In this document: in pieces, positions 1,596-49,777 of the stretch
Layout: each line of letters starts with the position of its first letter
How positions within the stretch are numbered: the first letter of the stretch is position 1
Assembly (NCBI GenBank): GCA_045538335.1
Contig: JAZSRF010000045.1
Coordinates: 5,708-69,707 of the forward strand
Source of the DNA: Clostridia bacterium
Lineage (GTDB): Bacteria; Bacillota; Clostridia; TANB77; CAG-465
Direction: 5' to 3'
DNA: 64,000 bases
Notes under the pieces: generated by a model
What the model was told of the DNA's origin: nothing
The model's input: the letters and a program-made list of their open reading frames with translations, nothing else
Databases searched by the model: none
Made by a program: the position numbers and the translations under genes

Positions 1596-2249
1596 TTACT
1601 CATTCAAATACTTGACGTAGCATTTGAGAATTTCACCGGGAATAGGACTTTCATTACAGAAATTCCATTTCTTTTTAGCAACGTCATAATAAACATTTGC
1701 TTGAAAGAGAGGAATATACGCTTCTACGCCTTCTTCTGCGGTACATTTAACAACATACTGCTTGCCTCTGTATTCTTTCAAAACAACGGCAGTAAACGGT
1801 ACGCTGCCTTTAGTAAGCACACTGTTCCTCGCCACATTAAAAGTAAACACCTTTGCCTTAAGCGTTTTTAAACCAATATCTTCTAACACTCCATAGAATG
1901 TATAATCAAAAATGCTCTCCGCACTATCAACAGTCTCTTTTTCTTGAAGCAGCTCGTACATTTTAAGAAACGCTTCGGCCACATCATTATTTTCCGAAGG
2001 ATGCCACTCATCATCTTCTAAATACATGGTGGGTTCATACAACGTCACATATTCTCTATGTCCATCTGTGTATTGCAACTCTAAAACGTCTTGTTTGCTG
2101 CCATATTGTTTCAGAAGTTCTACCTCAAATCTGTATTCTCTCGGAGCCTTTTCAAGCACTCCTTCTGGCCGATCTGCCAAAGTTACTTTTGCATTACCAG
2201 CTAACCGCGGGAAATAGGCACCATACAACTTCAAATCATAAATAGTCAT
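1596..2249 (-). CDS. hypothetical protein with an internal tandem duplication of a ~90-aa domain (paralog of 4033..4359)
   Basis: The N-terminal domain (MTIYDLKLYGAYF...LLKQYGSKQDVLELQYTDGHREYVTLYEP) is repeated in the C-terminal half (IFDYTFYGV...VVLKEYRGKQYVVKCTAEEGVEAYIPLF). GC is clearly above the genome background. Confidence 0.5.
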   Translation of the reverse strand: MTIYDLKLYGAYFPRLAGNAKVTLADRPEGVLEKAPREYRFEVELLKQYGSKQDVLELQYTDGHREYVTLYEPTMYLEDDEWHPSENNDVAEAFLKMYELLQEKETVDSAESIFDYTFYGVLEDIGLKTLKAKVFTFNVARNSVLTKGSVPFTAVVLKEYRGKQYVVKCTAEEGVEAYIPLFQANVYYDVAKKKWNFCNESPIPGEILKCYVKYLNE

Positions 2250-2330
2250 TATAATTCCCCCTAGTTTTATTTTAGGTTTTAATTATATCACATGTATTGT
2301 AGTTTTTCAATATTATAAAATACTTATTCG

Positions 2331-2359
2331 TTGATTTGTTAACATAAATATGGTATAAT
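2331..2359 (+). promoter_or_regulatory. sigmaA-type promoter (TTGATT - 17 nt - TATAAT) for the 526-aa membrane protein gene
   Basis: -35/-10 hexamers with 17-nt spacing, followed by RBS AGGAGG at 2399 and ATG at 2411. Confidence 0.4.
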
Positions 2360-2410
2360 GTTATTGTAGTTTTAGCAAAGTTCCAAAAATAATTTTTTAG
2401 GAGGATATAT

Positions 2411-3991
2411 ATGAACGGTTTAAAAACTACTATTTTGCTCATCGTCGCTATTGTTTTAGATGCCTTTATGTGGTATCTCTGGCAACCGCCTATGAACTTC
2501 TCGTCGCCTAGTTTCTGGTGGTTCGTAATCGTGTCTGTAGGGATTATCGCTTGCGCTTTGTTTATAGCCGGTTGGGAAGATGATGTTTTATTACCCGCAG
2601 GAATTGCCGGTGCCATTGTTGCCATTGCTTTTATTATTTGGCTTATCGGAGCGTGCTTCAGCGGCGGGCTTTTCAATGCCAAATTAATGTCCAATCTTCT
2701 GGATGTGGAGACCACCTCCTTTGAAGCAGAGTTTGAAAACGTTAACTGGAATACTGTTCCGCAAATCGACCACGCAAGCTCCGCCATTTTGGGTGCTAGA
2801 AAAATGGGTACTCTTGTAGAGGAAGTCTCCCAGTACAATGTAGCGGAAAATTACACATTGATTAATCAAAACGGTAAACCTACCCGTGTTGCTCCCTTGG
2901 TTTATGCGAGCGTATTCAAATACTTTAACAATAAATACCAAGGAATCCCCGGTTACATTACCGTAAACTGTGTGGAAAAGACTGCAGAGTTTGTTCGGTT
3001 GGAAAAAGGTATTCAGTATTCGCCTTCTGCTTGCTTTAGCAAAGACCTCAATCGTCATCTGAGAAGCCAGTTTCCAGGTATGCTCTTCGATGAATTTTCA
3101 TTCGAAATTGATGACGAAGGAGTACCTTACTGGGTTGTTCCCACTTATACTTATTCTTGTGGTATTGGTGGTGGCAAGACTCCTAACGGCTGTATTGTTT
3201 GCGACCCCATTACTGGTTCGGCAGATTTCTACGCTATGGATAAAATTCCCGAATGGATCGACCACGCTGTAGATGATGACACTGTCGTAAACCTTATCAA
3301 ATGGTGGGGCAAATACCAAGATGGTTGGTGGAACAGTTGGGTTAGCCAAAGAAACGTAAAACAGGCTACTGAAGGTAACAATTTTGTAACCATCGGCAAC
3401 GATGTATACCTGTACACTGGTATTACCTCCGTTGCTATGGACGAATCCAACATTGGCTTTATTTTGGTAAACCAGCGAACTGCAGAAGCAAGATACTTTG
3501 AAATGCCTTCTGCCGAAGAATACTCTGCTATGGATTCTGCAAAAGGCCAGGTACAGCATCTGAACTACACTTCTACCTTCCCTATTCTTATCAACCTTAA
3601 CGGAGAGGCTGTTTACTATCTGTCTTTGAAAGATGCTGCGGGATTAGTTAAAATGTATGCTCTCGTATCTGTAGAGGATATTCAGAAGCTTGCCGTAACA
3701 GATTCTACTTTAGGTATTGAATACCTGGTAGAGCAGTATAATAAATCTTCTAGCTCTATCCAAATTTCTGGCGGCGAGACCAAAACTATCACCTTTGATA
3801 TCGCAAACATTTATACTTGTGTAATCGAAGGTAACACACAATACTACTTTGAAGACGCAAACGGTAATGTTTATATGACAGATATTACCAAGAGTGTCAA
3901 ACTTCCTGTATATTCTGTAGGAGATAAAGTTACTATTACCTATTCTTCCACGAATGTAGAAAACTACTTCAGTATTGTAAACATTGAGTAA
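2411..3991 (+). CDS. hypothetical polytopic membrane protein (3 N-terminal TM helices + large Cys-containing extracytoplasmic domain)
   Basis: Hydrophobic N-terminal segments (ILLIVAIVLDAFMWYLW, FWWFVIVSVGIIACALFIAGW, IAGAIVAIAFIIWLIGACF). GC is ~45-50% against a ~28-30% background. Strong RBS. Confidence 0.55.
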   Translation: MNGLKTTILLIVAIVLDAFMWYLWQPPMNFSSPSFWWFVIVSVGIIACALFIAGWEDDVLLPAGIAGAIVAIAFIIWLIGACFSGGLFNAKLMSNLLDVETTSFEAEFENVNWNTVPQIDHASSAILGARKMGTLVEEVSQYNVAENYTLINQNGKPTRVAPLVYASVFKYFNNKYQGIPGYITVNCVEKTAEFVRLEKGIQYSPSACFSKDLNRHLRSQFPGMLFDEFSFEIDDEGVPYWVVPTYTYSCGIGGGKTPNGCIVCDPITGSADFYAMDKIPEWIDHAVDDDTVVNLIKWWGKYQDGWWNSWVSQRNVKQATEGNNFVTIGNDVYLYTGITSVAMDESNIGFILVNQRTAEARYFEMPSAEEYSAMDSAKGQVQHLNYTSTFPILINLNGEAVYYLSLKDAAGLVKMYALVSVEDIQKLAVTDSTLGIEYLVEQYNKSSSSIQISGGETKTITFDIANIYTCVIEGNTQYYFEDANGNVYMTDITKSVKLPVYSVGDKVTITYSSTNVENYFSIVNIE

Positions 3992-4032
3992 TCCTACAAA
4001 AGAGGAGATTCATTTGAATCTCCTCTTCCTTT

Positions 4033-4359
4033 TTATTTCTTTGAAACGCTTTCAAAATACGCCTTCATAAATGCTTCCGGTGTAGATTTATTCTTCGATT
4101 CCCTCCACATATTGTCTCCCATATCCCAGAACAAATACGGATATTTTAAGGTCTCATATGCTTCTTCGCCATTCTCAAAAACGAGTTTTAATACGTCCTG
4201 TTTGCCTCGGTATTCCTTAAGAAGAGTTATCTCAAAGAACGAGTTGTTAAAACCAGGAATACAGTGTCTGTCCTCCCTTCTTGCAAATATACTAACACCC
4301 GAAAAATCAAACTTGTACCGAAAGTACACGCCGTAAAACTTTACATCATAAATACTCAT
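4033..4359 (-). CDS. hypothetical single-domain protein, paralog of the N-terminal domain of 1596..2249
   Basis: MSIYDVKFYGVYF...LLKEYRGKQDVLKLVFENGEEAYETLKYP aligns with both repeats of the 217-aa protein. Confidence 0.5.
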   Translation of the reverse strand: MSIYDVKFYGVYFRYKFDFSGVSIFARREDRHCIPGFNNSFFEITLLKEYRGKQDVLKLVFENGEEAYETLKYPYLFWDMGDNMWRESKNKSTPEAFMKAYFESVSKK

Positions 4360-7500: not shown

Positions 7501-7929
7501 ATGAACGATAAAAAGTTTATTGTAAAACAAGGCGAAGATGAATTTGCAATTGGTTACTTTGGCGCCGACCTATATTGGGTAATGAAAAATTATCACGAGG
7601 GCAATAAATTTATAATTACCAAAAAATACGGTACCTTATACGAGGGCTTACAAACCATATTTAGATTCATGAAAATGCGCCAAGCACCCGAATTTAAGGC
7701 TAACGTCTTTAATTGGCTTAGCGAAGCAAGACTACCTGAAGAATCTAACCATATGACAATTACCAAGCAAAAAAACAAATTTGTTGTTGAATTCTTTCAA
7801 AACCCCAATGATTACATTTCTATAAGAAGTAAAACCTGTGCTATTTGTTTTTGCTTAAGTGGGAGTAAAAATCCAAGTATTGCAAACATGTTCAGCGCTC
7901 TGACGCACAAATTATTAGCGGGAGATTAA
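7501..7929 (+). CDS. hypothetical protein
   Basis: 142-aa ORF with RBS GGGAGAGG upstream; no recognisable motif. Confidence 0.4.
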   Translation: MNDKKFIVKQGEDEFAIGYFGADLYWVMKNYHEGNKFIITKKYGTLYEGLQTIFRFMKMRQAPEFKANVFNWLSEARLPEESNHMTITKQKNKFVVEFFQNPNDYISIRSKTCAICFCLSGSKNPSIANMFSALTHKLLAGD

Positions 7930-7998
7930 TTTCTCCCGCTAATTATTTTAATAGTTTTGCAGCGAACACTCTACTTAACTCATTATTATTTAGCTTTA

Positions 7999-8631
7999 CT
8001 ACCATTCCGACCATTCTGGCCATCCTTGTACATCTTTAACAGAATCTTTTTTTGGCTGTTCTTTGTTTTCAACAATCTGATTATTCATACTTTCTTGATC
8101 ATCATATACTTTCGTCGACAAATCACTTGCTAAAGTTGCTTGCTTCTCTTTTTTTATATCAAACTTTTTTTCAAGCTTCTGTTCTGCGCATAATGGTAAC
8201 TGTATACTTTTTAACTTTGCATGTTTTATAGTGTCGCACATTAACTCAAAAACCGCTTCTCTATTTTCTAACAGTGTGTCAACAATTAAGCATGTTATTC
8301 CTCTATCAGAATACACTTCCGGGTAAGCATCATTTAAGTCAAAGTTATCATACATTGTTATTTCACAATTATATTTACTATCTATTAATTTTTTCGCTAT
8401 AGCCATAGCCATTTTCCTAGAATATTCATCATTTAAATTATATGAAATATATGGCGTACCAGTGTCTCCAGCACAACAAGCATGTGAGAGAAACCCTTTA
8501 TTATATCCTTGGTTTAATAATCTCTCTAGTTGTTTCGAACCTTCTGCCCATTCATGAAATGCTTTTTTACGTTCCTTCGCTGTTAATGTTTTTATGTCTA
8601 TAGGTTTTCCTGTATTGTACTTACTTTGCAA
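7999..8631 (-). CDS. hypothetical protein
   Basis: 210-aa ORF with RBS GGGGGAA upstream; no recognisable motif. Confidence 0.4.
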   Translation of the reverse strand: MQSKYNTGKPIDIKTLTAKERKKAFHEWAEGSKQLERLLNQGYNKGFLSHACCAGDTGTPYISYNLNDEYSRKMAMAIAKKLIDSKYNCEITMYDNFDLNDAYPEVYSDRGITCLIVDTLLENREAVFELMCDTIKHAKLKSIQLPLCAEQKLEKKFDIKKEKQATLASDLSTKVYDDQESMNNQIVENKEQPKKDSVKDVQGWPEWSEW

Positions 8632-8655: not shown

Positions 8656-10020
8656 TCAGTTATTTGTATACTTGATTACATATTCTTTAAATTTATCTCC
8701 ACGTTCTTCAAAGTTTTTAAACACTCCATAGCTTGCTGCTGCAGGAGACATTAAACATATTGTTCCTTTTTTAGTGATTTGAGTTGCAAGCTCTACTGCT
8801 TTTTCTAAATCTTCAGCTAGAACATAATTAGAATTTGTTCCTGTTTTCTTTAATTCCTCATAGATTTTCTTACCGCTATCATACATTAAGATAACATTTT
8901 CTACTTTACCTTGTGATAGGAATTCTATCAAAGATGAATAATGTATTCCTCTATCCATTCCTCCAACTATTACTGTATTTATATTTGGAATACTTTCTAC
9001 AGCAGAAATAACTGCTTCTGGAATAGTAGCAATAGAATCGTCTATATATGTTACTCCATCATACACACCAATATTTTCTAATCTATGTGCAAGCGGTTTA
9101 AATTCCATAATTGCTTTTGATATTTTTTCATCTTCTACGTCTAAAAGTTTGGCAACCGTTGTTGCAACCGCAATGTTATAACAGTTATGTGCACCGCGTA
9201 TATTTTCGTTTTTAGGCTCTCTCACGGTTATAATATCTCCGTGAATGTTAATACGAACTTGCTCTTCCGAATAACAGCAAGACTCTTGTTCTTCTGTTTC
9301 TTCTTTGCCAACACCAATATGATGTTGCTTTAATAGTCTATCGCCATTTAACACTTCTTTTTCAGCCTCATTAAATATGTAATAATCATTTTCGTCTTGG
9401 TATTTGTATATATTTCTTTTTGCCTCTTTATACTCTTCATAACCCTTGTAATGGTCTAAGTGGTCTTCATACATATTAAGAAGTACTGCAATATGAGGGC
9501 TACAGTCTACAAACTCCAATTGATGTGACGAAAGCTCATACACATAATAATCTGTTGTGTTATATGTTTCCATTTCTTCAAAAGCCGGAAGGCCAATGTT
9601 CCCAACAAGAAGCGTGTTGTATTTTTCTTTAAGCATTGAATATATTAATGAAGATGTTGTACTCTTACCTTTTGTTCCAGTAATTCCAATTATTTTATCT
9701 TTGCCATACTTTAAAAAAAGTTCCGTTTGAGATGTCACTTTATCTCTTAAACCTGTTAAATCTACATCTTTAAAAGACTGTCCTGGTGTTTTCATTATAA
9801 CATCATAGTCTTTCATTGCTTCTAAATAATTAGCCCCAGTATGAAGAGTTACATCTGAATTTAAAATTTCTTCGTCTGTTATCTCTTTAATATCTGCAAT
9901 ACCTACTTTACAGTCGATATTATTATTTTTTATAAATCTATATGTACTTCTTCCTTCACGGCCAAAGCCTAGGATAAGCACACTTTTACCTGTCAACTCT
10001 TGTATTATTTTTTCTTTCAC
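8656..10020 (-). CDS. murD: UDP-N-acetylmuramoyl-L-alanine--glutamate ligase (MurD; possibly L-Glu-adding MurD2 type)
   Basis: N-terminal Rossmann ILGFGREG, Mur-ligase P-loop GITGTKGKST, and an internal insertion (GVGKEETEEQESCCYSEEQVRINIHG). Confidence 0.8.
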   Translation of the reverse strand: MKEKIIQELTGKSVLILGFGREGRSTYRFIKNNNIDCKVGIADIKEITDEEILNSDVTLHTGANYLEAMKDYDVIMKTPGQSFKDVDLTGLRDKVTSQTELFLKYGKDKIIGITGTKGKSTTSSLIYSMLKEKYNTLLVGNIGLPAFEEMETYNTTDYYVYELSSHQLEFVDCSPHIAVLLNMYEDHLDHYKGYEEYKEAKRNIYKYQDENDYYIFNEAEKEVLNGDRLLKQHHIGVGKEETEEQESCCYSEEQVRINIHGDIITVREPKNENIRGAHNCYNIAVATTVAKLLDVEDEKISKAIMEFKPLAHRLENIGVYDGVTYIDDSIATIPEAVISAVESIPNINTVIVGGMDRGIHYSSLIEFLSQGKVENVILMYDSGKKIYEELKKTGTNSNYVLAEDLEKAVELATQITKKGTICLMSPAAASYGVFKNFEERGDKFKEYVIKYTNN

Positions 10021-10031
10021 AAAAGTTCCTC

Positions 10032-11390
10032 CTACTCAATATATTCTCTTAAAGCTTTTTTAAATTCTTCTGTCAGATTGTTATCCTCATTCCAATCTTT
10101 TTTTGCCTCTTCTATTGCTTGTTCTAAATTCGCTATATTTGGTTTAAAGTCTTTTAATAGCACTGGTAATTCTTTACCCTCTTTATTTAATCTTTCAACT
10201 ATCATATTAAGACTTAAGTTTATTTCATCTTTAGTTCCAACACATTCAAATGGTTTGTCGTAATCTGGATAAACAAGACCATTAAATATATCTCTTAAAG
10301 ATTCATTATTTAGCATATCTGTTTTAAAAATTCTAGCCATATCCTCATCTGTTAAGAATGCTTTAACCATAATATATACGTATAAACACTTAGGACAATT
10401 TTCACACCATATGTCTTGTTTAGAACCTACGTTACAACTTTTGAATACTTCAAAATATTTATCTGTTTTAACAAACGCCCTAACTATTTGCCATTCACTT
10501 AACGCTCTAAGTAAACTAAAATAGCTTGGTCCATTTTCACAAATATGTTTTTCCACATATTCTCTAAAGTCATTTTCAAATTCTATACTCTTAGAATATT
10601 GGTGGTTTATATTTGTACCACTAACATTTGCTTCGTTTGCACTAGCCTCATTAGATAATACTATGTTTTTTCTACCAAGTATTACAGCTGAAGCGTAAGA
10701 AGAAAATGCAAGTATTGCCGAAAACGGTGTATGCCCATTCAAAAAGCCTTGTTTATTTAATTCTAATAATCTTGAATCCAAAGTTCTCTTTGGCGCATAA
10801 ATCTTACCATCATATCCGCCAACAATGGCAGAATCTCTTGATGCTCCTCTTGGATTTACAATATAACACATATTATCCATATTTTTTAATACTTCTAAAG
10901 ATAACGAAGAGTCTTTGCCACCACCCACAGGCACAAGATTTCCTGTAAGGTCCTCTGTTAATTCTGTTTTTTTACTTGCGGTGTTTTCTACTTTAATTTC
11001 TAGAAATGTATCTATGTTCATTGCTTCTACAATATTATTTCTGTAGAAAAATTCACCAAGTCCATTAATGTATAACTTTTTATACCATGCTATCTGTTCC
11101 TCATTCAAATTTCCACATTTTACAACAAGAGTAGGTGAACAAGTAGACTTAAGGTATGACACAACTTCAACCATACCAAGATTAAATATTGTGTTTTCTA
11201 ATATCTTTCTTGAACTTGCATCTAACACTCTTCCTTGTGGCTTTGGAAAACTCCATGTTGGTTTAAACTCTGTTAAACCTGGCACAACAAAGTTAAATGA
11301 TACTTCAAAACTGTTTTCAGTTTCTGTAATATCATAAGAATTGTATTCAAATATTGGATATTTTTCTCTTAACTCATTAAATTTATCCAT
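10032..11390 (-). CDS. PP-loop (adenine-nucleotide alpha-hydrolase superfamily) protein coupled to murD; candidate MurL-like UDP-MurNAc-L-Ala-L-Glu epimerase
   Basis: PP-loop PVGGGKDSS, and a Cys cluster CENCPKC. Lies 11 nt downstream of murD in the same operon. Confidence 0.45.
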   Translation of the reverse strand: MDKFNELREKYPIFEYNSYDITETENSFEVSFNFVVPGLTEFKPTWSFPKPQGRVLDASSRKILENTIFNLGMVEVVSYLKSTCSPTLVVKCGNLNEEQIAWYKKLYINGLGEFFYRNNIVEAMNIDTFLEIKVENTASKKTELTEDLTGNLVPVGGGKDSSLSLEVLKNMDNMCYIVNPRGASRDSAIVGGYDGKIYAPKRTLDSRLLELNKQGFLNGHTPFSAILAFSSYASAVILGRKNIVLSNEASANEANVSGTNINHQYSKSIEFENDFREYVEKHICENGPSYFSLLRALSEWQIVRAFVKTDKYFEVFKSCNVGSKQDIWCENCPKCLYVYIMVKAFLTDEDMARIFKTDMLNNESLRDIFNGLVYPDYDKPFECVGTKDEINLSLNMIVERLNKEGKELPVLLKDFKPNIANLEQAIEEAKKDWNEDNNLTEEFKKALREYIE

Positions 11391-11391
11391 A

Positions 11392-11988
11392 TTACATTTC
11401 CCTTCTATTTTCCATTGCCTTTATTAGTGTAATTTCATCTGTATATTCTAAATCTCCGCCTACTGGTATTCCGTGTGCAATTCTAGACACTTTTATACCT
11501 GGTATTGTTTTAATAATTCTAGAAATATACATTGCAGTAGCTTCCCCTTCTATTGTTGGATTAGTCGCAAGAATTACTTCTTTCACATTTTCATCTGAAA
11601 GCCTAGATACTAATTCTTTTATTTTTATATCTTGCGCAGATATATTGTTCATAGGAGAAATAGCTCCATGAAGTACGTGGTATAATCCTTTGTACTCGTG
11701 TGTTTTTTCCATAGCAACTACATCTTTTACATTCTCTACTACGCATATAACACTTGTGTCTCTTTTAGAATTACCACAAATCTCACATTTGTCTGCTTCA
11801 GATAAGTTGTAGCAAGTCGAACAAAATCTCACTTTCTGTTTAGCTTCAAGCAAAGCTTCAGACATTGTTTTAGCTACTTCTGTATCTGATTCTAATATAT
11901 AGAATGCTAAACGAACTGCTGTCTTGTGACCAATTCCTGGCAACTTTTCAAATTCTCCTATTAATTTTTTAACTGATTCTGAATACAT
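11392..11988 (-). CDS. recR: recombination protein RecR
   Basis: C4 zinc finger CSTCYNLSEADKCEICGN, Toprim domain, 198 aa. Confidence 0.9.
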   Translation of the reverse strand: MYSESVKKLIGEFEKLPGIGHKTAVRLAFYILESDTEVAKTMSEALLEAKQKVRFCSTCYNLSEADKCEICGNSKRDTSVICVVENVKDVVAMEKTHEYKGLYHVLHGAISPMNNISAQDIKIKELVSRLSDENVKEVILATNPTIEGEATAMYISRIIKTIPGIKVSRIAHGIPVGGDLEYTDEITLIKAMENRREM

Positions 11989-11995
11989 AACCTAC

Positions 11996-12325
11996 CTACA
12001 TCAACCCTGGAATGTTTAATCCTCCAAGTCCTTCTTGCATCATATCATCTGCTTTTCTTAATGCTTCATTTACTGCAGTAAGAACGAGGTCTTGTAGCAT
12101 TTCTACATCATCTGGGTCTACTACTTCTTTTTTAATTATTATTTCTTTTATTTCTTTCGCACCTGTTGCTTTTACTATAACAGCTCCCCCACCAACGGAA
12201 GTTTCAAACTCCGTGTTTGCTGCTTCCTCTTGTTTCTTTTGCATTTCTGCTTGCATTTTTTGTGCCTGTCTCATTAAGTTTTGCATATTTCCCATTCCGC
12301 CTGGGAATCCTCCAAATTTAGCCAT
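11996..12325 (-). CDS. ybaB: YbaB/EbfC nucleoid-associated protein
   Basis: 109 aa with G-rich N-terminus and conserved core; positioned between dnaX and recR as is canonical. Confidence 0.85.
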
Positions 12326-12360: not shown

Positions 12361-13962
12361 TTAATCTACTACTTCAAAAGGTACGCCTGAATCCTTCATC
12401 ATATTTTCGAATCCATTAGCTTCATCCTTTTTAGTCTCTTTAATATATTCAATTCTTACATTAAAATCATTATTCATTTCTTCATTTACTATTTTTCTCA
12501 AATCCTCACGTGTATTATCTTTATTTAATACCCCATACGCAAATGCGTTACATGTAGCAAATACAATTGTTTCATCTTCCTCAAAAGCTTGTGCCCCTGC
12601 AAGTGCAGAATAAAGTTTTAAGTTGTCTGAATCTACTGCTTTTTTCATTATTTTGTCTAACTCTTTAACTTTTTTTCTACCAAGCTTTACTTCAGCCACT
12701 TTTGCCTCTTTAGGTTTCTCCACTGTCTGAACTTGTTCTGTCGCCTCTTCTTTTGGTGCAGTTTCAACTTGTTTTTCTTGTTTTTGCACTTTTGCTTTAG
12801 GTTCAGCTTGAACTTTAATACCTGTCATTTCAAGCTTCTCTATTTTCATTTCTAGTTCTTTTATTTTTGCTAAAAGTTCACTTTCATCTAATGATACAAC
12901 TTTTGTTGAAAGCTCTAATAGTTTTGCTTTAAATAGCATTGCAACATTATTAGACTGTCTTAAATCGTCATCGAGTTTTGACATATGCTTAATAATTTCC
13001 TGTATTCTTGTAACACTTACTTTTCCACAAACGTCTTTTAATTCTTCGGATATATCCACATTATCCCCACAAGATACTGCTATTAATACTTTTAAGAATT
13101 CTTGTGTTATACTTGCAGATATGTTTCTTAAATCTTTACCTGATGAAAGTATTGTATTTACTAGTTCATCTACCTTAGTAATATTGTATTCAAGAACACC
13201 AGCCACTATATCTTGTATAAGTTTCTTTGGAACTGTACCAATTATTTCTTCTATTTTTTGTTCTGTAATTTCACCTTCTCCAGAAGTTATACATCTTTCT
13301 AGAATACTTAAAGCATCCCTCATTCCACCATCTGCAAGTTCAGCTATGTGTTCTAAAGCTTCTATATCATAATGGACATTATAATCTTTAAGCACGTGTT
13401 CTAGTCTTTGAACTATACCAGCTTTACCTATCTTTTTAAATTCAAATCTTATACAACGAGATAAAATTGTAGGTAAAATCTTGTGTTCTTCTGTTGTTGC
13501 TAAAATAAATATAACATTCTCTGGTGGTTCTTCTAGCGTCTTAAGTAACGCATTAAATGCACTAGTTGAAAGCATATGTGCTTCGTCTATAATATACACT
13601 TTATACTTTAGACCCGTTGTAGAATATGCAACTTCTTGGCGTATGCTACGTATATTTTCTACTGAATTGTTAGATGCAGCATCCATTTCAACCACATCTG
13701 TTGTATTTCCTTCTAATATGCTACGGCATGCTTCACATTCATTGCAAGGCTCACCCTCTTGGTTATTTAGACAGTTAACTGCTCTTGCAAAAACTTTAGC
13801 TGCTGTAGTTTTACCAGTACCTCTAGTTCCACTAAAAATATATGCATGAGATATTTTAGAAGACACTATTTGATTTTTCAAAATTTTAGTTATATGTTCT
13901 TGACCTATCATATCACTAAAATTTTGTGGTCTATATTTTCTATATAACGCTACGTATGACAT
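12361..13962 (-). CDS. dnaX: DNA polymerase III subunit tau/gamma
   Basis: Walker A GTRGTGKTT, zinc module CNECEAC, clamp-loader boxes. Confidence 0.9.
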   Translation of the reverse strand: MSYVALYRKYRPQNFSDMIGQEHITKILKNQIVSSKISHAYIFSGTRGTGKTTAAKVFARAVNCLNNQEGEPCNECEACRSILEGNTTDVVEMDAASNNSVENIRSIRQEVAYSTTGLKYKVYIIDEAHMLSTSAFNALLKTLEEPPENVIFILATTEEHKILPTILSRCIRFEFKKIGKAGIVQRLEHVLKDYNVHYDIEALEHIAELADGGMRDALSILERCITSGEGEITEQKIEEIIGTVPKKLIQDIVAGVLEYNITKVDELVNTILSSGKDLRNISASITQEFLKVLIAVSCGDNVDISEELKDVCGKVSVTRIQEIIKHMSKLDDDLRQSNNVAMLFKAKLLELSTKVVSLDESELLAKIKELEMKIEKLEMTGIKVQAEPKAKVQKQEKQVETAPKEEATEQVQTVEKPKEAKVAEVKLGRKKVKELDKIMKKAVDSDNLKLYSALAGAQAFEEDETIVFATCNAFAYGVLNKDNTREDLRKIVNEEMNNDFNVRIEYIKETKKDEANGFENMMKDSGVPFEVVD

Positions 13963-14011
13963 ATTTTAACCCCTTATATTTTATAATATTACTACAAATG
14001 CTATATATACA

Positions 14012-14108
14012 AAAATGTCGCCCACGGCACATAGTATCATTTGCTTATTGCTGCTTCCTTCCGGACCTGACAAGGTTCACAAACTCACTATTGCCAAAGC
14101 GACTTTAG
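14012..14108 (-). ncRNA. ffs: SRP RNA (small 4.5S/ffs type)
   Basis: The minus-strand transcript contains the domain IV motif GUCAGGUCCGGAAGGAAGCAGC (rc of 14051..14072). Terminal helix GTCGC.../...GCGAC. Sits in the canonical position upstream of dnaX. Confidence 0.65.
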
Positions 14109-32045: not shown

Positions 32046-32120
32046 ATGGTGCCCCCTGCGAGAATCGAACCCACAACTAGCCCTTAGGAGGGGCTTATTA
32101 TATCCATTTAACTAAGGGGA
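32046..32120 (-). tRNA. tRNA-Arg (anticodon CCU)
   Basis: Manual fold: acceptor GTCCCCT/AGGGGGC, D-arm GTTA-AATGGATA-TAAT, anticodon stem AGCCC/GGGCT with loop CTCCTAA, T-loop TTCGATT, encoded CCA. Confidence 0.85.
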
Positions 32121-32208
32121 CATTGCCTCTCAATTATACACAAGATTTAATTGTTTTTCAATATTTCATTGATTTTTTTGTTTTAGTAGTGTATAATAAT
32201 TCCCACAA

Positions 32209-32247
32209 GCACCAATAGCTCAACTGGATAGAGCGTCAGACTACGAA
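32209..32247 (+). other. 5' half (acceptor-5' strand, D-arm, anticodon 5' stem and loop) of a disrupted tRNA-Arg(ACG) gene; attL junction
   Basis: GCACCAATAGCTCAACTGGATAGAGCGTCAGACTACGAA is tRNA-like up to anticodon-loop position 38, then diverges. A TGTATAAT -10 lies just upstream. It pairs perfectly with the 3' half at 40498..40544. Confidence 0.7.
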
Positions 32248-32311
32248 CAGAACGCTCAAAACCTTATACCTATTGATAATGCTGTTTTTCAGGGTTTGGG
32301 AATTTTTCATT

Positions 32312-32328
32312 CCCCAGTTTTACCCCAA
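32312..32328. repeat. 17-bp direct repeat CCCCAGTTTTACCCCAA (left-arm copy; candidate Int arm-type site)
   Basis: Identical 17-mer recurs at 40309..40325 near the other end of the element. Each copy is next to a short palindrome (GGGAATttttcATTCCC / TTCCCAAAATTGGGGAA). Confidence 0.5.
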
Positions 32329-32353
32329 AAAACTAAAATACAATTTAACATAT

Positions 32354-32430
32354 GCGGCAGTAGCTCAATTGGATAGAGTAACGGACTACGAATCCGTCGG
32401 TTGGGGGTTCAAATCCCTTCTGCCGCACCA
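32354..32430 (+). tRNA. tRNA-Arg (anticodon ACG), intact, carried just inside the element
   Basis: Acceptor GCGGCAG/CTGCCGC, anticodon stem ACGGA/TCCGT with loop CTACGAA, T-loop GGTTCAAATCC, encoded CCA; 77 nt. Confidence 0.9.
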
Positions 32431-32465
32431 CTTTTACAGCTTTTAGTTTACAGAAGGCTGTATTT

Positions 32466-33747
32466 TTATCCCCAAATTTTATTAATTTCTTCTCTTTTTC
32501 TTGTTAATGTAACGTGTATATAATACTTCTTTGTTGTAGATGAGTCAGAGTGCCCCATTAGTTCTTTTAACACAACATCAGGCACACCTCTTTCACTGCA
32601 TAATGTTGCAAAACTATGCCTTAAACCATACAAGGTTACTTTCCCCAATTTGTACTTTTTAATAAATGTTGGTATTTTATTTGTTAATCTTTCAGATACA
32701 TAAGGTCCTCCGTTTTCATTTAGAAAAACATATTCTTCATCCGACCATTTTATATTATTCCTTTTTGCCTTTTCTTTTTTGCTTTCTTTTAACTTAATTA
32801 ACATTTTAAATAACCTTGGCGACATTGGTATAATTCTATAACTTTCTTTAGTTTTAAGACTGCTATCTGCTTTCTTATAGCCAATAGCATTAAAGTTCTC
32901 ATCAAATATTTGAATTTCTTTATATGCATTTTCTACACATATAGTCTCATCTTTAAAATTTACACATTTCCATTTTAAGCCACAACCGTTCTTCTGGTCT
33001 CATACCAGTTTGAATTATGGTAGCAAAGAGCAGCGCCCAATCTCTACCATCTTGTTCGGCACAATCTAACCACTTTACTTGTTCTTCAGATGTTAAATAA
33101 CTAATCTCTTTTCTTCTCTTGGGTGGTAACACAATATCTACAATAGGGTTAATACTAATTAAATTTTGCTGTCTTGCAAAGTCCATTATTTGTTTCATTG
33201 TAATGTAATTATCTCTTGCCATTTTAGGTGCATTTCTATTATCTATGTAATTTTGAAACATCTCTTTTGTAATTTCATTTATTAAGTATTCTCCAAATGC
33301 AGGTATTAAATTAGACTTAACATTGTATACATATTGTTCAAAAGTTTTACTGCTTAATCTTTTTGCTCTGTTAGGCATTGTTTCTTGTCTTCTTTTTTCC
33401 AGCCAATTAAAAGCAACCTTATTAAACTTATTACACTCTTTTGCTTTAGAAATAATTTCTTGTGTAACATCCTCATTGTTATATTCTTTTAGTTTTCTCA
33501 AACTTTTAGAACATGTCCTATTTGTTTCTTCTTCATTTAACCCTTTGCCTTGTGATGCCCTAATGTATGCCTCAGCTATTGCTTCACCAAGTTTTCTTTT
33601 TGCCTCCTTTTCTGAAACAGAACTAAACCTAGATAATCTATAGTTTTTTATACCATCAATATCTAAAGTTATTCTTGCTTCATAACCATTATTTCTTTTT
33701 CTAACGCTTATAGTGCCCTTTTTAGCCCTTTCTTTTATTTTCTTCAT
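32466..33747 (-). pseudogene. int: tyrosine site-specific integrase, disrupted by a frameshift near 32950..32990
   Basis: The N-terminal ORF (32953..33747) ends inside box I (...TGMRPEERLW). The C-terminal ORF (32466..32825) carries LRHSFATL...HSD...Y catalytic residues in a different frame (lower coordinate mod 3 = 0 vs 1). The alternative frame reads through as ...GLKWKCVNFKDET.... Confidence 0.7.
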
Positions 33748-33844
33748 ACAATTCCCTCCTAATATAAAGAAAATGTTTAAATTAGCGTTTAGAAAGGTAA
33801 ATCATAGTTATTATAACATCTCTTTATATGTAAAGTCTAATCTT

Positions 33845-34033
33845 TTAATAATAATATTTGCCGTAATTTTCGTGAATCCACTTTTCAAGATCTTGCTTAT
33901 TAATAATTACTTTTCGCTTAAATCTTATACAAGGGAATCCATCAACTTTAATTAGTTCTAGCATTAAGTTTCTTCCAATGCCCAACATCTTTCTTGCTTC
34001 CTCAATGCTAATACATACCTTTTCGTCTTGCAT
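33845..34033 (-). CDS. xis: excisionase/AlpA-like small HTH DNA-binding protein
   Basis: 62 aa from ATG 34033 (RBS AAGGAGG): MQDEKVCISIEEARKMLGIGRNLMLELIKVDGFP. Directly upstream of int. Confidence 0.5.
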   Translation of the reverse strand: MQDEKVCISIEEARKMLGIGRNLMLELIKVDGFPCIRFKRKVIINKQDLEKWIHENYGKYYY

Positions 34034-34140
34034 ACTATACCTCCTTCTTCTTAAATTGAAAGGATTTGTTATATAAATAATCTGTCCACTTAATATAACT
34101 AAAAATAACAAATGTAAAATTTAAAATTATATATTTTTTA

Positions 34141-34540
34141 CTTTGCTTATTACTTGCCCCTTCACTTACTATATATCCTTCAAACACTAAAAATCGGACA
34201 AGATTTATAAAAATAGCGACTTTTTACAAAATTTCACATAATCTTCTTTGTTTTTAGTATTAATTTTTATATTCTCTCATTACTTAACAGTCCTCCAAAC
34301 ATATAAATAATTAGAAGATTTACAAAAATAACACAATTTTCTTTATTTGTTATAATTAGTTTTATCCCCTTTCACTTCCCTATCGATTGAAACAGTGAAA
34401 GTCGGACAAAATATTAAAAATTTATTTAATTTTTTATAAATTAGATTATTTACCCCTTCACTTATATAAACAGTTGAAACACCAAAAATCTGACAAAATT
34501 TATAAAAACCGTGCTTTTTCACACAATTTCACACAAAAAT
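34141..34540. repeat. iteron-like imperfect direct repeats (CCCCTTCACTTA ... AAAAATC(G/T)GACAA(G/A)ATTTATAAAAA ... ATTTCACA) x ~2.5 in AT-rich non-coding DNA
   Basis: Copy 1 is 34156..34238; a partial copy with the hairpin CTTTCACT..AGTGAAAG is 34365..34420; copy 3 is 34455..34534. The two ~50-bp units are ~80% identical. Confidence 0.5.
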
Positions 34541-35244
34541 ACCCTTATAATTGGAAATATCAATGTAATAAAAAAGCAGTATTAAAACCACTCAAACAAA
34601 ACAAATAACTTTTGATATCTGTTTTATACATTAACTTTTGTTCATTAAATAAGAAGAAGTACTTTATTAAGTATATCAACTTTCACTTAAAATAAAGAAA
34701 AGCTTTAAAAAGGGAACATATAATATAATTAATTTAGTTTATGATGCAATACTAGATAACTTGACCTTTCCTAATGGCAAAAACCAAAGTGTTTATTCTC
34801 TACGAACCATGAAGCTGACAATAGTTATCCATAAGAAATAAAAATGTATAAATTTGAATATTACTTAAATTGTAAACTCAAAGATCAATTTCCTAAAGTT
34901 ACAGCTAACAAAAGAGTTAATTTTTAAAAAGTTCTAAAAGTTTAAAGATAAAGCAAAAAATCTATTATCAAAACAAAACTATCATATAAGAAGCAAACGA
35001 CACCAAGAGGTAAAGTATTCTTTTGCGCAAGCAAAATTGAATAAAGAAATTAAAAATCTTACTAAGATAACTTAAAACCAGATACATAATGGTACATTAT
35101 TTGTATGCATTTGACACCGAGATATGTTTAATAGTATGATAACCACACTATCTATAGTATAACTGAAAATGAGAAATCAAGCAATATTGTTTAAAAATTT
35201 GGGCGCCCTAAAATTATTTTAGGGTGCCCTCTTTGTTTTGAGAC

Positions 35245-35418
35245 CTATTCAAGTGCAAAACTAGCAAAATACATATCCTTGCCCGTGCAACGCTGTCTGC
35301 ACTTGGAAGTGCTCAATACACGAAACTTCTTTCCTTGCGTCTTTGCATCATTACGTTGAGCTTTGATATAAGCCCTACGCTCTTTAGGAGAATCAAACCA
35401 CGTTGACCAATTTTTCAT
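35245..35418 (-). CDS. small hypothetical protein (57 aa) with its own RBS and terminator
   Basis: GGAGGTG RBS; MKNWSTWFDSPKERRAYIKAQRND...; downstream hairpin GGGCGCCCTAAAAT/ATTTTAGGGTGCCC at 35204..35232. Confidence 0.3.
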   Translation of the reverse strand: MKNWSTWFDSPKERRAYIKAQRNDAKTQGKKFRVLSTSKCRQRCTGKDMYFASFALE

Positions 35419-35445
35419 TAGTGCACCTCCAATATGAGTCTTCTT

Positions 35446-35661
35446 CTACAATTCAAAAAATTCTTTTCGTTCTTCCGCAGTTATATTAAAAAGTCCCCCG
35501 TGTCCATCTTTAACTTCCCAGACCCCATCTTCGCAAGAACCTGATTTCCCAGGGAACTTATCCTTGACGCCGAGAATTGTTCCAGATGTAATCTGAACAC
35601 CCGTCTTTGTAACATAATCTTTATTGCATTTTATTTGCCATAAATTTCTGCAACAAGTCAT
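35446..35661 (-). CDS. small Cys-rich hypothetical protein (71 aa from ATG 35661)
   Basis: RBS AAGGAGG + ATG giving MTCCRNLWQIKCNKDY...SGSCEDGVWEV. The longer ORF call lacks an RBS. Confidence 0.35.
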   Translation of the reverse strand: MTCCRNLWQIKCNKDYVTKTGVQITSGTILGVKDKFPGKSGSCEDGVWEVKDGHGGLFNITAEERKEFFEL

Positions 35662-36180
35662 ATTTTTAATCCTCCTTATAATTTGTTGATGTTTATTCGA
35701 CAAGGTACTACTGCTATACAATACAGTGCCTCCTTAAAGTCGTACAAAACCTAAATGCTTTTATTATTTCATTATAGTAAAATGAAATTCAATTAAACTG
35801 ACACCTATATTATAACATATATTTTATGTAAAGTCAAATAAGAATACGCCGAGACATTTTCTACTTATTATGTTAATATTTCCAAATCACAGTCGAGCAA
35901 CTGTATATATTAGTATAGTATCACTAACTATCAGTACTATATATAAGGTCAATAATAAATGCTATATTTTAATGCAACTTATTTGTTTTTTCATTAGATT
36001 AATTTTTAAACCCGTTATTTCTTAATTTATTTATACCTAATACAGGAATAGATGCAAGACACATCGGCTCACATCTTAGAGGCACAGCCACTAAACTTGT
36101 ATTACAATTTCAATTTTGTATTACATTTGTAATACGATAACCAAGTTGGTCATTTTAAGTAGAATGCTACATATAAGCAA

Positions 36181-36232
36181 AACTACAGTATCTCTTGTTT
36201 AAGAGTAACTGTAGTTTTATTTTATTTATCCA
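36181..36232. terminator. hairpin AAAACTACAGT...ACTGTAGTTTT with T-rich flank at 3' end of the defence operon
   Basis: 11-bp inverted repeat overlapping the stop of the RloB-like gene. Confidence 0.4.
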
Positions 36233-36908
36233 TCATTTCTTCTAATAACAATCCCACATTAGAGCCCAATTCAGTCTTTAAATATTTAACATCTTCACAA
36301 AAAGACTTTTCATTTTCTATTGCTGTTCTAATATTAGCTTTAAATTTTTTGAAATCAATATTTCTTTTATTACAACCAAATATTTGATTTAACTTAACCT
36401 CTAAAAACCTTCTGTTATTGCTTATTTTTTCATTATTTAACATATCCTCTTTGCTTATGTTAAAAACTTCTTTACTATGCAATACAAGAAAAAATTCAAA
36501 AGTAGGATTTGTTACAAAAGGGAAATATCCACATCTACTAACACCCTCTAAAAACTCATCATATTGATTGTCTTTAAAATTTTGTGGATCCCTATCGACT
36601 ATAAAACATACCTTGTCTATTTCTTTACTGTACACAAATTTATCTTCATCTAAAGATTTATTAAAGTTTTCTAATTTTTTAAGCGGATGGCTTTGTCCAT
36701 ATTCGCTTTCTTCATTTTCTACCGGAACAATCTCTATCAAATCTTTTATTCCTATTTCTTCCGAATTTTCTTTTACACCTTGAAAGTATTGTAATTCTGT
36801 TTTATCTCCTTCAGAAACAATAAAATATTTAGACTTAGGTTCTTTACTTCCTTTTCTTCTTTCTAGGTTTAATCCATTTTCACTAATTATTCTCATCTGA
36901 TAAATCAC
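36222..36908 (-). CDS. RloB-like (AbiLii-type, Toprim/OLD-related) defence protein
   Basis: Toprim-like signatures YFIVSEGDKTELQYF and FIVDRDPQ. Overlaps the preceding ATPase gene by 26 nt (operon). Confidence 0.6.
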   Translation of the reverse strand: MIYQMRIISENGLNLERRKGSKEPKSKYFIVSEGDKTELQYFQGVKENSEEIGIKDLIEIVPVENEESEYGQSHPLKKLENFNKSLDEDKFVYSKEIDKVCFIVDRDPQNFKDNQYDEFLEGVSRCGYFPFVTNPTFEFFLVLHSKEVFNISKEDMLNNEKISNNRRFLEVKLNQIFGCNKRNIDFKKFKANIRTAIENEKSFCEDVKYLKTELGSNVGLLLEEMMDK

Positions 36909-38283
36909 CTACCGGAAATACAGTTTCAAAAATTGGTACTCCACCATAACGGCCTTCTAAATATGCTTTATCAATCTTTTTATCAAATCTCTCATTATAA
37001 TCTTCTAAAGAATATAACTCTGTTTGACCATATTTTTGTCTATTTGCAAACCAAACCTCATCTCTCCTTAATAAGTCAAAATCTAAAAGCCTAGATTCAT
37101 GTGTAGTAACTATTAATTGTGTATTCTTATCTTCAGAGTTAGCTAAAAATCTTTTTACAAATTCAAACGTTAATTGTGGATGCAAACATCTATCTACTTC
37201 ATCTATTAAATAAACTTTCTCTTTATTTTTATTCATCAAAATTTCAATTAGATCGAATAATCTTTGTGTACCATCGGATTCCTCAGAAAATAAATATTCA
37301 CTTTCATTATTTTTATGCTTTAATACTATCTTTTGAACTTGAATACCAGCTAATTCTGCTTTTCTCAAGATATACATTTCCTTATTTATTCTAATATTTG
37401 CTTGTTGAACAATTATTTTGTTGTATTTCTTCAAATTATCCATAAAAGCTTTTTCTATAGTATCAATCATATTCTTTAGAATATCTGGTGGTATGTTGTC
37501 TTTTAATTCTTGCAAACTTGATTTTACAACTTTACATTTGCTGATTCCCGTTCCAAATGTAGAAATTATATCATTTATTTTTTCAATATTTTCTTCTGTA
37601 GAAAAATACGGTGTATTATCTAAACCTACTTGTGGAAAAATGATAGTTAAAGTATTATTAAACCAATTAAATAAATCTCTAAAAATACATACATTATTAT
37701 CTGGAAATTCTTTATACATTGTATCTTTGTTTTTATTCATAATGGTTAAAAATAATATATTATCTTGGCTCTTCATATCTGAATAATAAACGTTATTTCT
37801 ATTTATTATATCTTGGACATCATTAAAATATTAACTGTTTAATTCTATATTTTCATTTAGTTTTCTTGTATAAATAAGTATTTCCTTATTTTTATTTTTA
37901 TCCAACTCATATAGCCATTCTGCACGAATACTATTTTCTGATAATAGCATATCAAATCCATAAGCATAATATTTATCATTAATTTTTATTTCATATTCAA
38001 ATGAAGATATCTTATCCTTATTTGAATTGTTGATTCTGCAATATAGACTTGTGACATTAAATGCTACTCCTCTTAAAATAATGTTTTTCCCAAAATTAAT
38101 TGCTTTTAATAAATTAGATTTTCCGGATGCATTAGCCCCATATACCGCTGAAAATTTTAGTAATTTTAGTTTTTCATCGCTTACTAAGTGCGCTGCTTTA
38201 TTTTTTACAGCACCCGCTATCATAGAGAATTCTTGTTCTTCATTAAAAGATAAAAAATTTGAAACTTTAAATCTTATTAACAT
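36883..38283 (-). pseudogene. ABC-type AAA_21/AAA_15 ATPase (AbiLi/AriA-like) interrupted by a single in-frame TAA (37831..37833)
   Basis: N-terminal part has Walker A FSAVYGANASGKSNLLKAI. C-terminal part has ABC signature ESDGTQRLF, Walker B VYLIDEVDRCLHP and H-loop VTTHE. Both ORFs share one frame. The 18 codons between stop and next ATG have no further stops. Confidence 0.7.
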
Positions 38284-40544: not shown

Positions 40545-40615
40545 ACAAGTATACAGCTCATGTTATACTTGTTTTTTAATATTCAATAGTTGCAAACTAT
40601 TTCCAGGGGGTTAAC

Positions 40616-41627
40616 TGTGAAGAAAATTATATATCTTTTTAAAAGAATATGTGAAATGGATTTCAAATCTATGTTTAAAACAGCAAGGCGTGTTGGAAAA
40701 GCTAATAAGGCATCATCTATTATAGTTTTGTTTGATATAATTCGTTGCGGAATAAAATATATGGCAGGGTATGTAGATTACGAAGTTTTTGGATTTTACA
40801 ACCTAACCAAAGAGCAAAGAGAAACAATTATAACAAGAGGCATTAATAATCGTTTTGTTGCAACACTAAACGACAAAGAATTAGCAAACACTTTAGATAA
40901 CAAGTTACTATTTAACAAAAGATTTAATGAGTTATTAAAAAGAGACTGGCTTAATTTAAAAGAAACTTCAAAAGAAGAATTTGCAAAGTTTCTTAAAGAC
41001 AAAACAAATATAATTGTTAAACCAGTAGACCAGGCATGCGGAAGAAACGTTGAGAAAATAAGCGTTAAAGAAATTAATGATATTAACAATTTATATGACA
41101 ACCTAATATCTAAAAAACAATATTTGGTAGAAGATTGCATTGTGCAACATCCTAAAATGTCTGAAATATATCCTAACGCAGTTAATACCCTAAGAATAGT
41201 TACTGTTACTAAAAACAATAAAGTTAACATTATGTTTAGAAGCATTCGCATGGGCAATTCAGGTAATGTTGTAGACAATTTCAATCACGGCGGATTATTT
41301 ACAACAATAGAAGAAAATGGAGTTATTCAAAAACCAGCTGTAGACAAACTTGGTAATATCTATGATAGTCATCCATTTACAAATACACCGCTTATAGGAT
41401 ATGAAATCCCTTTATTTAAACAAGCAATCGAATTCGTAAAAACAATGGCAATTTCCATACCAGAAGTTGGATACGTCGGTTGGGATATCGCTATTACAGA
41501 AAACGGGCCTGTTGTTGTAGAAGCAAATCCATTCCCAGGCCACGATATATATCAATCAAAAATACACATGAAGGCAGACGGAACAGGACTTAGAAAAGAT
41601 TTTGAAAAAATAATATATGAAGACTAG
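40616..41627 (+). CDS. ATP-grasp family protein (sugar-transfer-associated ATP-grasp type)
   Basis: ATP-grasp fold signatures (IIVKPVDQACGRNVEKI, EVGYVGWDIAITENGPVVVEANPFPG). Likely GTG start at 40616 after RBS AGGGGG. Confidence 0.55.
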
Positions 41628-44099: not shown

Positions 44100-44840
44100 C
44101 TAAATAACTTCACACAATCTTTGCTGATTTACTGTTAAAATATCCTTTTTACTGTTTACCATGGCTGTTATATTTTGTATAACATTATTTTCCTTTGCAC
44201 AATCATTATATCTACTCAGTACGTATTTGTTTTCATTAAGTTTATCTGCAATTTCATTTGCTCTTTCTAAATCTTTGTTTTTATATGCTTTATACCATTC
44301 TTCACATTTCTTTAAAAATTCATTTTTCTTTTGTTCTAATTTATCTATAACATTATTTAAATACTTTATAAACTCACTATTCATTATATAATTTTTAAGT
44401 TTATCAAAAAATTTATATACATAATCTCCTACTATATTATTTTTTAAGTAGTTTGATTCAACTATTTCAATACCATTTTTTAAAGAGGTTATAAGTCCGC
44501 CTTTTTTAGCTATATCTTTTAACTCACTTAATGAATTAATACTCTTTTTGGATAAGCCCATGATCTCAAGGCCCTCTCTTATTGTACTTTTTACAGCTGT
44601 AGCTATTACCTCTTTAATATCTTTCGTCTTTATTGCATCCTTTATGTCCATAAGTACGTCCTTTACCGCATCCGGAACAGGCAAAGCTTTAATAACATAT
44701 TTTGTCGCGTGATCTACTGTTTTTTCTACAGCGCCCGTTAAATCTTCCTTTAAAGTTTCCATTTTACTATCCTTACTAAGGTCCATGGCCAACTCCTTTG
44801 TATTTTGTATAATTTCATTTATTTCATTAGACAAATTCAT
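44100..44840 (-). CDS. hypothetical alpha-helical protein, last gene of the Tad-like operon
   Basis: 246 aa, 2 nt after the TadB-like gene. Confidence 0.35.
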   Translation of the reverse strand: MNLSNEINEIIQNTKELAMDLSKDSKMETLKEDLTGAVEKTVDHATKYVIKALPVPDAVKDVLMDIKDAIKTKDIKEVIATAVKSTIREGLEIMGLSKKSINSLSELKDIAKKGGLITSLKNGIEIVESNYLKNNIVGDYVYKFFDKLKNYIMNSEFIKYLNNVIDKLEQKKNEFLKKCEEWYKAYKNKDLERANEIADKLNENKYVLSRYNDCAKENNVIQNITAMVNSKKDILTVNQQRLCEVI

Positions 44841-44842
44841 AT

Positions 44843-49774: not shown

Positions 49775-49777
49775 AAT

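Follow-up and report, generated by a model that had tools for sequence, protein, structure and literature searches.

A murL homologue immediately precedes murD

The window analysed here is a 64,000-nucleotide (nt) stretch of contig JAZSRF010000045.1 from a Clostridia bacterium (assembly GCA_045538335.1, positions 5,708 to 69,707), and our subject is a pair of adjacent genes in it that encode a 452-residue protein and a homologue of the Mur ligase MurD (Table 1). A preliminary description of the window, made from its letters and open reading frames (ORFs), had proposed that this pair provides the MurD2/MurL route to D-Glu in peptidoglycan, in which L-Glu is ligated and then epimerised; it had recorded a GGGKDSS PP-loop and a Cys cluster in the 452-residue protein, and had placed the corresponding gene 11 nt downstream of murD. 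We found both sequence features, and the coordinates agree with the 11-nt spacing, but both genes lie on the minus strand and the gene for the 452-residue protein is therefore upstream of murD, the same murL-then-murD order as in Xanthomonas sacchari. The GGAGG Shine-Dalgarno sequence of murD overlaps the murL stop codon, and the two genes, which in relatives are separated by 0-15 nt, are translationally coupled.

The 452-residue protein belongs to the MurL family

The 452-residue protein matches the NCBIfam model for MurL (NF041275) with an E-value of 1e-67 and 228.6 bits, residues 54-429 aligning with positions 47-426 of the 447-position profile, and this is its sole NCBIfam family at E<0.01. 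Homologues that are 51-88% identical to it carry the Pfam domains PF26299 (MurL_N) and PF26298 (MurL_epimerase_C) in precomputed annotation; our own Pfam scan, run with a copy that lacks the MurL families, returned only a sub-threshold match to DUF6395 on the region of the Cys cluster. Searching plasmid records by tblastn, we located adjacent genes annotated as murL and murD in RefSeq on an X. sacchari replicon, and BLASTP aligned the window protein with the MurL encoded there at 32% identity (E 2e-50). Profile and pairwise comparison both place the protein in the MurL family, as suspected at the outset. Its relatives are named 'hypothetical protein' in NCBI records.

Alignment of the window and X. 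sacchari MurL proteins revealed about 60 invariant columns in common, including the motifs GGGKDS, GH.P, SNE.SA, NHQ.SK, SLLR, SCN, WC..C.KC and KPFECVG. Within the PP-loop-like motif, G156, G157, G158, D160 and S161 do not vary in an alignment that spans Clostridia, Xanthomonas and Pseudonocardia. The four-Cys cluster, whose spacing is QueC-like, is a candidate metal site, and the fifth invariant Cys of MurL, C383 in KPFECVG, is a candidate acid/base residue for exchange of the alpha-proton. The likeness to the Xanthomonas type of MurL, described in 2017 (reviewed in PMC8788868, PMC5808125), extends to the length of about 450 residues, the same two Pfam domains, all invariant motifs and the position of the gene directly 5' of that of a MurD-type ligase. 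The window protein differs in being only about 30% identical and in its origin in an uncultured, low-GC member of the Clostridia, where the gene is part of a dnaX-ybaB-recR unit.

Linkage of MurL and MurD across two phyla, and fusions of the two

Using two MurL motifs as patterns, one of them KPFECVG, we scanned GTDB species genomes and found at least 586 loci that encode a relative, the closest match among the loci listed being 62% identical to the window MurL. Neighbourhoods were read for the best 80 of these at least 586 loci. Represented among the 80 are uncultured Clostridia, Ruminiclostridium, Ruminococcus flavefaciens (with its cultured strain Y1), Oscillospiraceae, Lachnospiraceae bacterium MA2020, Erysipelotrichales, Bacilli, 'Tenericutes' and many Bacteroidales or Bacteroidetes. 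A MurD homologue is encoded directly 3' of murL, on the same strand, in 78 of the 80. The two exceptions, L074 and L079, are loci from metagenome-assembled genomes of Oscillospiraceae in which neither 6-kb flank encodes a MurD homologue.

A HMMER search against 1.84 billion cluster representatives returned 2,527 MurL-family clusters at E<=1e-3, 1,052 of them at E<=1e-30. Among the best 150 of the 2,527 representatives (50%-identity clusters), 35 are at least 700 residues long, and these comprise 31 MurL-MurD, three MurD-MurL and one MurB-MurL fusions. Two of the fusions were traced to contigs, where they are uninterrupted single ORFs (P0132, L093:2121-4892; P0176, L094:943-3687). That the two proteins are fused in either order strongly and independently indicates that MurL and MurD proteins of this kind work on consecutive steps, and intermediates may pass directly between the fused enzymes, MurB-MurL included (substrate channelling). 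Two fusions stand apart in their composition: the MurB-MurL protein (P0207, 791 residues) and a 1247-residue MurL-MurD protein with an additional M20 peptidase domain (P0156).

These data bear on the notion that the two genes are neighbours by chance and that the 452-residue protein is a PP-loop enzyme that modifies tRNA or nucleosides and has no part in peptidoglycan synthesis. A PP-loop-like motif together with a Cys cluster is typical of TtuA/QueC-type enzymes, but no tRNA-modification or other PP-loop family was matched in NCBIfam or Pfam, and the protein does not group with tRNA-modifying PP-loop enzymes, a grouping that the preliminary description had taken as the sign of a wrong assignment; with MurL as the only NCBIfam match, we rejected this candidate function. 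Adjacency at 78 of the best 80 loci in two phyla and the fusions to MurD and MurB effectively refute it, and we regard coincidence as scarcely credible.

The published reviews place the MurL pathway in Gamma- and Alphaproteobacteria and rare actinobacteria, call its distribution limited, and mention low-similarity MurL homologues in a fungus, cyanobacteria and an amoeba (PMC8788868, PMC5808125). Our literature search found no report of a MurL or MurD2 pathway in Firmicutes or Bacteroidetes. MurL-family genes 27-30% identical to the window gene, with all motifs kept, also occur on mobilizable Pseudonocardia plasmids (L008:4911-6311, P. alni pPaSha1; H2, H4) and may represent a paralogous function of the family.

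Peptidoglycan genes and D-Glu sources in the window

The absence of a glutamate racemase from the window, already remarked on in the preliminary description, is borne out: about 45 ORFs scanned with Pfam included none that matched Asp_Glu_race or Aminotran_4, and six-frame tblastn of the window with E. coli MurI reached a best E-value of 0.11. The window likewise has no second murD. It does encode a 443-residue MurT homologue and an adjacent 239-residue GatD homologue, both of which score under their equivalog cutoffs; the pair is probably a lipid II isoglutaminyl synthase, predicted to amidate D-isoglutamate at position 2 of the stem peptide, and the two homologues imply a stem peptide with D-isoglutamate at that position. 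Also present are genes for a SpoVB/MurJ-like flippase, a CwlD-like amidase and a WecA/TagO-like transferase. Together with MurT/GatD, these genes indicate that the organism makes peptidoglycan and probably amidates D-isoglutamate at position 2.

The MurD partner carries most, but not all, MurD2-type residues

In Xanthomonas oryzae MurD2, Glu197 and Arg358 set the specificity for L-Glu; the E197D substitution changes stereospecificity, the E197D/R358K double mutant acquires specificity for D-Glu, and E. coli MurD with the K319T substitution takes L-Glu (PMC8788868). We aligned 84 MurL-linked MurDs with E. coli MurD and compared the signature positions. At the position of E. coli Lys319, a residue present in the NDSKAT motif of the MurDs from E. 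coli, Streptococcus agalactiae and Thermotoga maritima, 80 of 81 MurL-linked MurDs have Ile; at Lys348 all 81 have Arg; at Asp182 Glu predominates (80 of 84, with Asp in the remaining four); and at Leu416 the residue is Tyr or Phe. In X. sacchari MurD2 the Asp182, Lys319, Lys348 and Leu416 positions are occupied by Glu, Ile, Arg and Phe, respectively. The window MurD shows three of these MurD2-type changes, Ile330, Arg357 and, at the Leu416 position, Tyr431, but has Asp186 at the position of Glu197. Asp186 is kept in the closest relatives (96%, 83% and 79% identical) and is therefore a trait of the clade and not an error. Asp occupies the same position in four of the 34 fused MurL/MurD proteins, and it is therefore compatible with coupling to MurL.

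The preliminary description had also reported an internal insertion in MurD. This did not hold up: at 454 residues the protein is close in length to S. agalactiae MurD (451 residues), and apart from small indels it aligns over its whole length with canonical MurDs of solved structure. The acidic stretch around residues 235-265 corresponds to a variable loop, 25 residues of which are missing from the 79%-identical relative. We also rejected an internal insertion as a hallmark of MurD2 in this protein, since the two N-terminal-domain insertions and the C-terminal extension of X. sacchari MurD2 are absent from it.

Compared with Xanthomonas MurD2, the window protein is likewise a three-domain Mur ligase encoded right after murL, with Arg at the R358 position, Ile at that of E. 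coli K319 and an aromatic residue at that of E. coli L416; it differs in Asp186 for Glu197 and in Ala for Pro433, and at 27% identity it is no closer to X. sacchari MurD2 than to canonical MurDs. With the canonical enzymes (E. coli b0088, S. agalactiae 3LK7, T. maritima 4BUC) it shares the overall fold, the P-loop GTKGKST and the His of the (D/E)H motif, and it departs from them in Ile for K319, in its location outside a dcw cluster and in its coupling to murL. A PDB search found no MurD2 structure.

The canonical enzymes in our neighbour-joining tree numbered only three, of which two were reconstructed from PDB alignments. The tree unites the MurL-linked MurDs of Bacillota and Bacteroidota, including that of the window, in one clan with 97% bootstrap support, to which neither the canonical MurDs nor Xanthomonas MurD2 belong. 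The split that sets all MurL-linked MurDs apart from these three canonical ones has only 28% support. The window MurD is 42% identical to MurL-linked MurDs of Bacteroidetes and 30% to the MurD of the Firmicute S. agalactiae, which suggests that the murL-murD cassette may have moved between phyla.

The residue at position 186 lends some weight to a redundant or bispecific system, in which murI or dat is present in the genome as well, D- and L-Glu are both accepted by the Asp186 MurD, and MurL, as a back-up or proofreading activity, only rescues the L-Glu product and is not the one source of D-Glu. Asp at the Glu197 position is specific to the clade of the window, E197D shifts the stereospecificity of X. 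oryzae MurD2, and wild-type Streptococcus mutans MurD, in which the second determinant is Arg, accepts L-Glu to a slight extent (PMC8788868). Against such redundancy stand the conserved change of Lys319 to Ile, the presence of Asp in four MurL/MurD fusions, in which the ligase is necessarily coupled to MurL, and the lack of murI in the 64-kb window. On balance we consider this arrangement unlikely.

MurL is predicted to adopt a PP-loop-like fold

Reviews describe MurL as a protein without recognisable conserved domains (PMC8788868, PMC5808125). We modelled the window MurL with AlphaFold2 using 44 sequences (predicted local distance difference test score, 92.8; predicted template modelling (TM) score, 0.92) and compared the model with the PDB using Foldseek. 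The top match was the QueC-like protein QatC (9y02_B, E 8.9e-4, probability 1.00), followed by the PP-loop sulfurtransferase TtuA (5B4F, probability 0.8-0.9), with low TM-scores against PDB matches, at most 0.40. In this model, the MurL fold resembles those of QueC-like and TtuA PP-loop enzymes, with the GGGKDS loop sitting between a strand and a helix in PP-loop fashion. Sequence comparison gave less: an hhalign alignment with E. coli QueC superimposed the Cys clusters but was non-significant (E 0.12, probability 0.5%), no Pfam PP-loop family and no QatC-like system in PADLOC was matched, and a PDB sequence search with MurL returned only spurious low-complexity matches.

PP-loop enzymes adenylate a carbonyl or carboxylate of their substrate and release pyrophosphate. 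MurL shares with QueC-like enzymes and TtuA a Gly-rich loop that ends in DS between a strand and a helix, and a chemistry that yields AMP; with E. coli QueC it also shares the Cys spacing C-x9-C-x2-C-x2-C. It differs in having Gly instead of Ser as first residue of the motif, in its product, an epimer and not an amide, nitrile or thiocarbonyl, and in that sequence and profile similarity are not significant. The predicted fold fits the conversion of ATP to AMP and the adenylation of the Glu alpha-carboxylate that we propose below.

The same resemblance could be read differently, with MurD as an ordinary D-Glu ligase and the MurL-like protein modifying the precursor in another way; it could, for example, form an adenylate, like PP-loop amidotransferases and QueC, and so amidate or otherwise derivatise the alpha-carboxylate of Glu. 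QueC-like and TtuA enzymes adenylate and then transfer a group, the window MurD passes the canonical murD model, and members of the MurL family without a murD neighbour are known. However, all invariant motifs are common to the Xanthomonas type, a characterised epimerase, the window already has MurT/GatD for the amidation of Glu, and the active site of MurD bears MurD2-type changes, so that we hold a different modification to be highly unlikely.

A likely racemase-independent route to D-Glu

Taken together, the MurL family match, the linkage to murD at 78 of 80 loci, the fusions, and the changes of K319 to Ile and K348 to Arg, as in Xanthomonas MurD2, favour the reading put forward in the preliminary description: murL and murD likely constitute a functional, racemase-independent route of the MurL/MurD2 type to the D-Glu at position 2 of the stem peptide.

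Several observations weigh against this interpretation. The 228.6 bits of MurL fall below the NF041275 equivalog cutoff of 700; that model, however, is order-specific, as its name MurL_Xanthmoales (Xanthomonadales) states, so that the low score limits automatic naming and is no argument against homology. The window MurD passes the canonical murD equivalog cutoff (TIGR01087, 327.9 bits against a cutoff of 212), as X. sacchari MurD2, labelled a D-Glu ligase by RefSeq, evidently does too. The MurD2 determinant Glu197 is replaced by Asp186, as in E. coli MurD, and because E197D altered the stereospecificity of X. oryzae MurD2, the window enzyme may have a relaxed or dual specificity. Arg at the R358 position is not exclusive to MurD2, as a D-Glu-specific streptococcal MurD has it too, and the neighbour-joining tree does not demonstrate monophyly of the window MurD and Xanthomonas MurD2. 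The Pseudonocardia plasmids and L074 and L079 have MurL-like genes with no murD next to them, and family membership alone therefore does not fix function. Finally, the stoichiometry of ATP to AMP and the epimerisation were shown experimentally only for enzymes of Xanthomonas, Micromonospora and Salinispora (PMC8788868, PMC5808125); the Firmicute members are putative assignments from sequence.

MurL is unidirectional and uses one ATP with formation of AMP, and this conversion of ATP to AMP was seen with X. oryzae MurL (PMC8788868, PMC5808125). In the mechanism we propose for the window enzymes, the MurD-type ligase would first add L-Glu, as its linkage to murL and its signature residues suggest. 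ATP would then bind at the GGGKDS loop of MurL, as the fold assignment predicts, and the alpha-carboxylate of the terminal L-Glu would be adenylated. Adenylation would acidify the alpha-proton, which a base of the enzyme, possibly the invariant Cys383, His263 or Lys267, would remove and which would be returned from the opposite face, before hydrolysis releases the D-epimer. Testable hypotheses on mechanism follow from the predicted PP-loop/QueC-like fold, the cluster of four Cys residues and the cysteine of KPFECVG.

The pathway itself is already known, and curated MurL models exist in NCBIfam and Pfam; the locus adds a member from a phylum outside the lists given in the reviews. What goes beyond the accessible literature, and needs experimental confirmation, is the predicted occurrence in hundreds of gut and rumen species, the natural fusions and the putative QueC-like PP-loop fold. 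For the broader proposal that large groups of Bacillota and Bacteroidota in the gut and rumen obtain a major part, perhaps all, of their peptidoglycan D-Glu by a MurL/MurD2-type route, in many lineages with a fused bifunctional enzyme, and that MurL is a QueC-like PP-loop, four-Cys, acyl-adenylate epimerase, we judge the chances to be evenly split. The groups concerned would include R. flavefaciens, Oscillospiraceae, Lachnospiraceae, Erysipelotrichales and Bacteroidales.

Current annotation obscures such a route, since the partner ligase passes the canonical murD model, RefSeq calls even Xanthomonas MurD2 a D-Glu ligase and the MurL relatives appear as 'hypothetical protein'; metabolic reconstructions of these anaerobes would therefore show a false D-Glu gap or the wrong substrate. 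Because many of the MurL loci (at least 586 species-level loci and about 2,500 clusters) come from gut and rumen commensals, inhibitors of the pathway could also affect the microbiota.

Locus architecture and transcription unit

The pair lies at the end of a unit that follows a promoter-like site and contains the gene for the signal recognition particle (SRP) RNA, ffs, as well as dnaX, ybaB and recR (Table 1). Given this location and the translational coupling, murL and murD are probably expressed constitutively with the housekeeping genes. A 210-residue ORF with its own ribosome-binding site, which has no match in Pfam or NCBIfam, is probably the final gene of the unit. A terminator-like palindromic hairpin is found at 7914-7943. 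The dnaX-ybaB-recR-murL-murD block is kept in close and distant metagenomic relatives, in which genes for a response regulator and a histidine kinase and tatD lie 3' of it, at times after one or two other genes.

Table 1. Positions in the window of the murL-murD pair, its signature residues and associated genes
Feature	Position	Strand	Remarks
murL (452-residue ORF)	10032-11390	minus	NF041275 match; MurL Pfam domains in homologues
PP-loop-like motif GGGKDSS	10905-10925	minus	MurL residues 156-162; strand 149-154, helix 159-167 in the model
Four-Cys cluster C319-x9-C329-x2-C332-x2-C335 (SCN...WCxxCxKC)	10386-10436	minus	invariant in two alignments
KPFECVG with C383	10236-10256	minus	invariant in all aligned MurL homologues
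murL-murD junction (11 nt)	10021-10031	minus	TAG stop, GAGGAACTTTT, GTG start
murD homologue (454 residues, GTG start)	8656-10020	minus	TIGR01087, Mur_ligase_M, Mur_ligase_C, MurD-like_N
MurD Asp186	9463-9465	minus	E. coli Asp182; X. oryzae MurD2 Glu197
MurD Ile330	9031-9033	minus	E. coli Lys319; DDSIAT against canonical NDSKAT
MurD Arg357	8950-8952	minus	E. coli Lys348; X. oryzae MurD2 Arg358
Promoter-like site	14139-14111	minus	11 of 12 positions matched
SRP RNA (ffs)	14011-14106	minus	Rfam
dnaX	12361-13962	minus	ORF
ybaB	11996-12325	minus	ORF
recR	11392-11988	minus	ORF; stop 1 nt from murL start
210-residue ORF	7999-8631	minus	begins 24 nt past murD; ribosome-binding site AAGGGGGA
MurT homologue (443 residues) and adjacent GatD homologue (239 residues)	59816-61863	plus	NF052464, E 9e-73; NF045636, E 2e-31

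Other features of the window

Two tRNA genes (32050-32121, minus; 32354-32427, plus) adjoin a phage-integrase-like gene (32953-33747), and an AbiLi/AbiLii-like defence pair follows at 36883-37776 and 36222-36908 (PADLOC E-values 4e-47 and 6e-17). The GC content drops to 26-28% between kb 34 and kb 40 of the window, and the region 32050-37776 is probably an integrated island. A cluster on the minus strand at 44100-50320 encodes a T2SSE-type secretion ATPase, a CbiA/ParA-like ATPase and a TraG/HerA-like P-loop protein, and could be a Tad-like pilus or conjugation-related module. A 'sugar-transfer associated' ATP-grasp protein (PF14397, E 3e-53) is encoded at 40590-41627 (plus), next to a tRNA/cytidine deaminase-like gene and a gene for a CwlD-like amidase. 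Two paralogous small ORFs (1596-2249 and 4033-4359, both minus) have similar N-termini, MTIYDLKLYGAYF and MSIYDVKFYGVYF, and flank the gene for a 526-residue predicted membrane protein without a family match (2411-3991, plus); the local GC content at 1596-4359 is 40%, compared with about 31% for the window.

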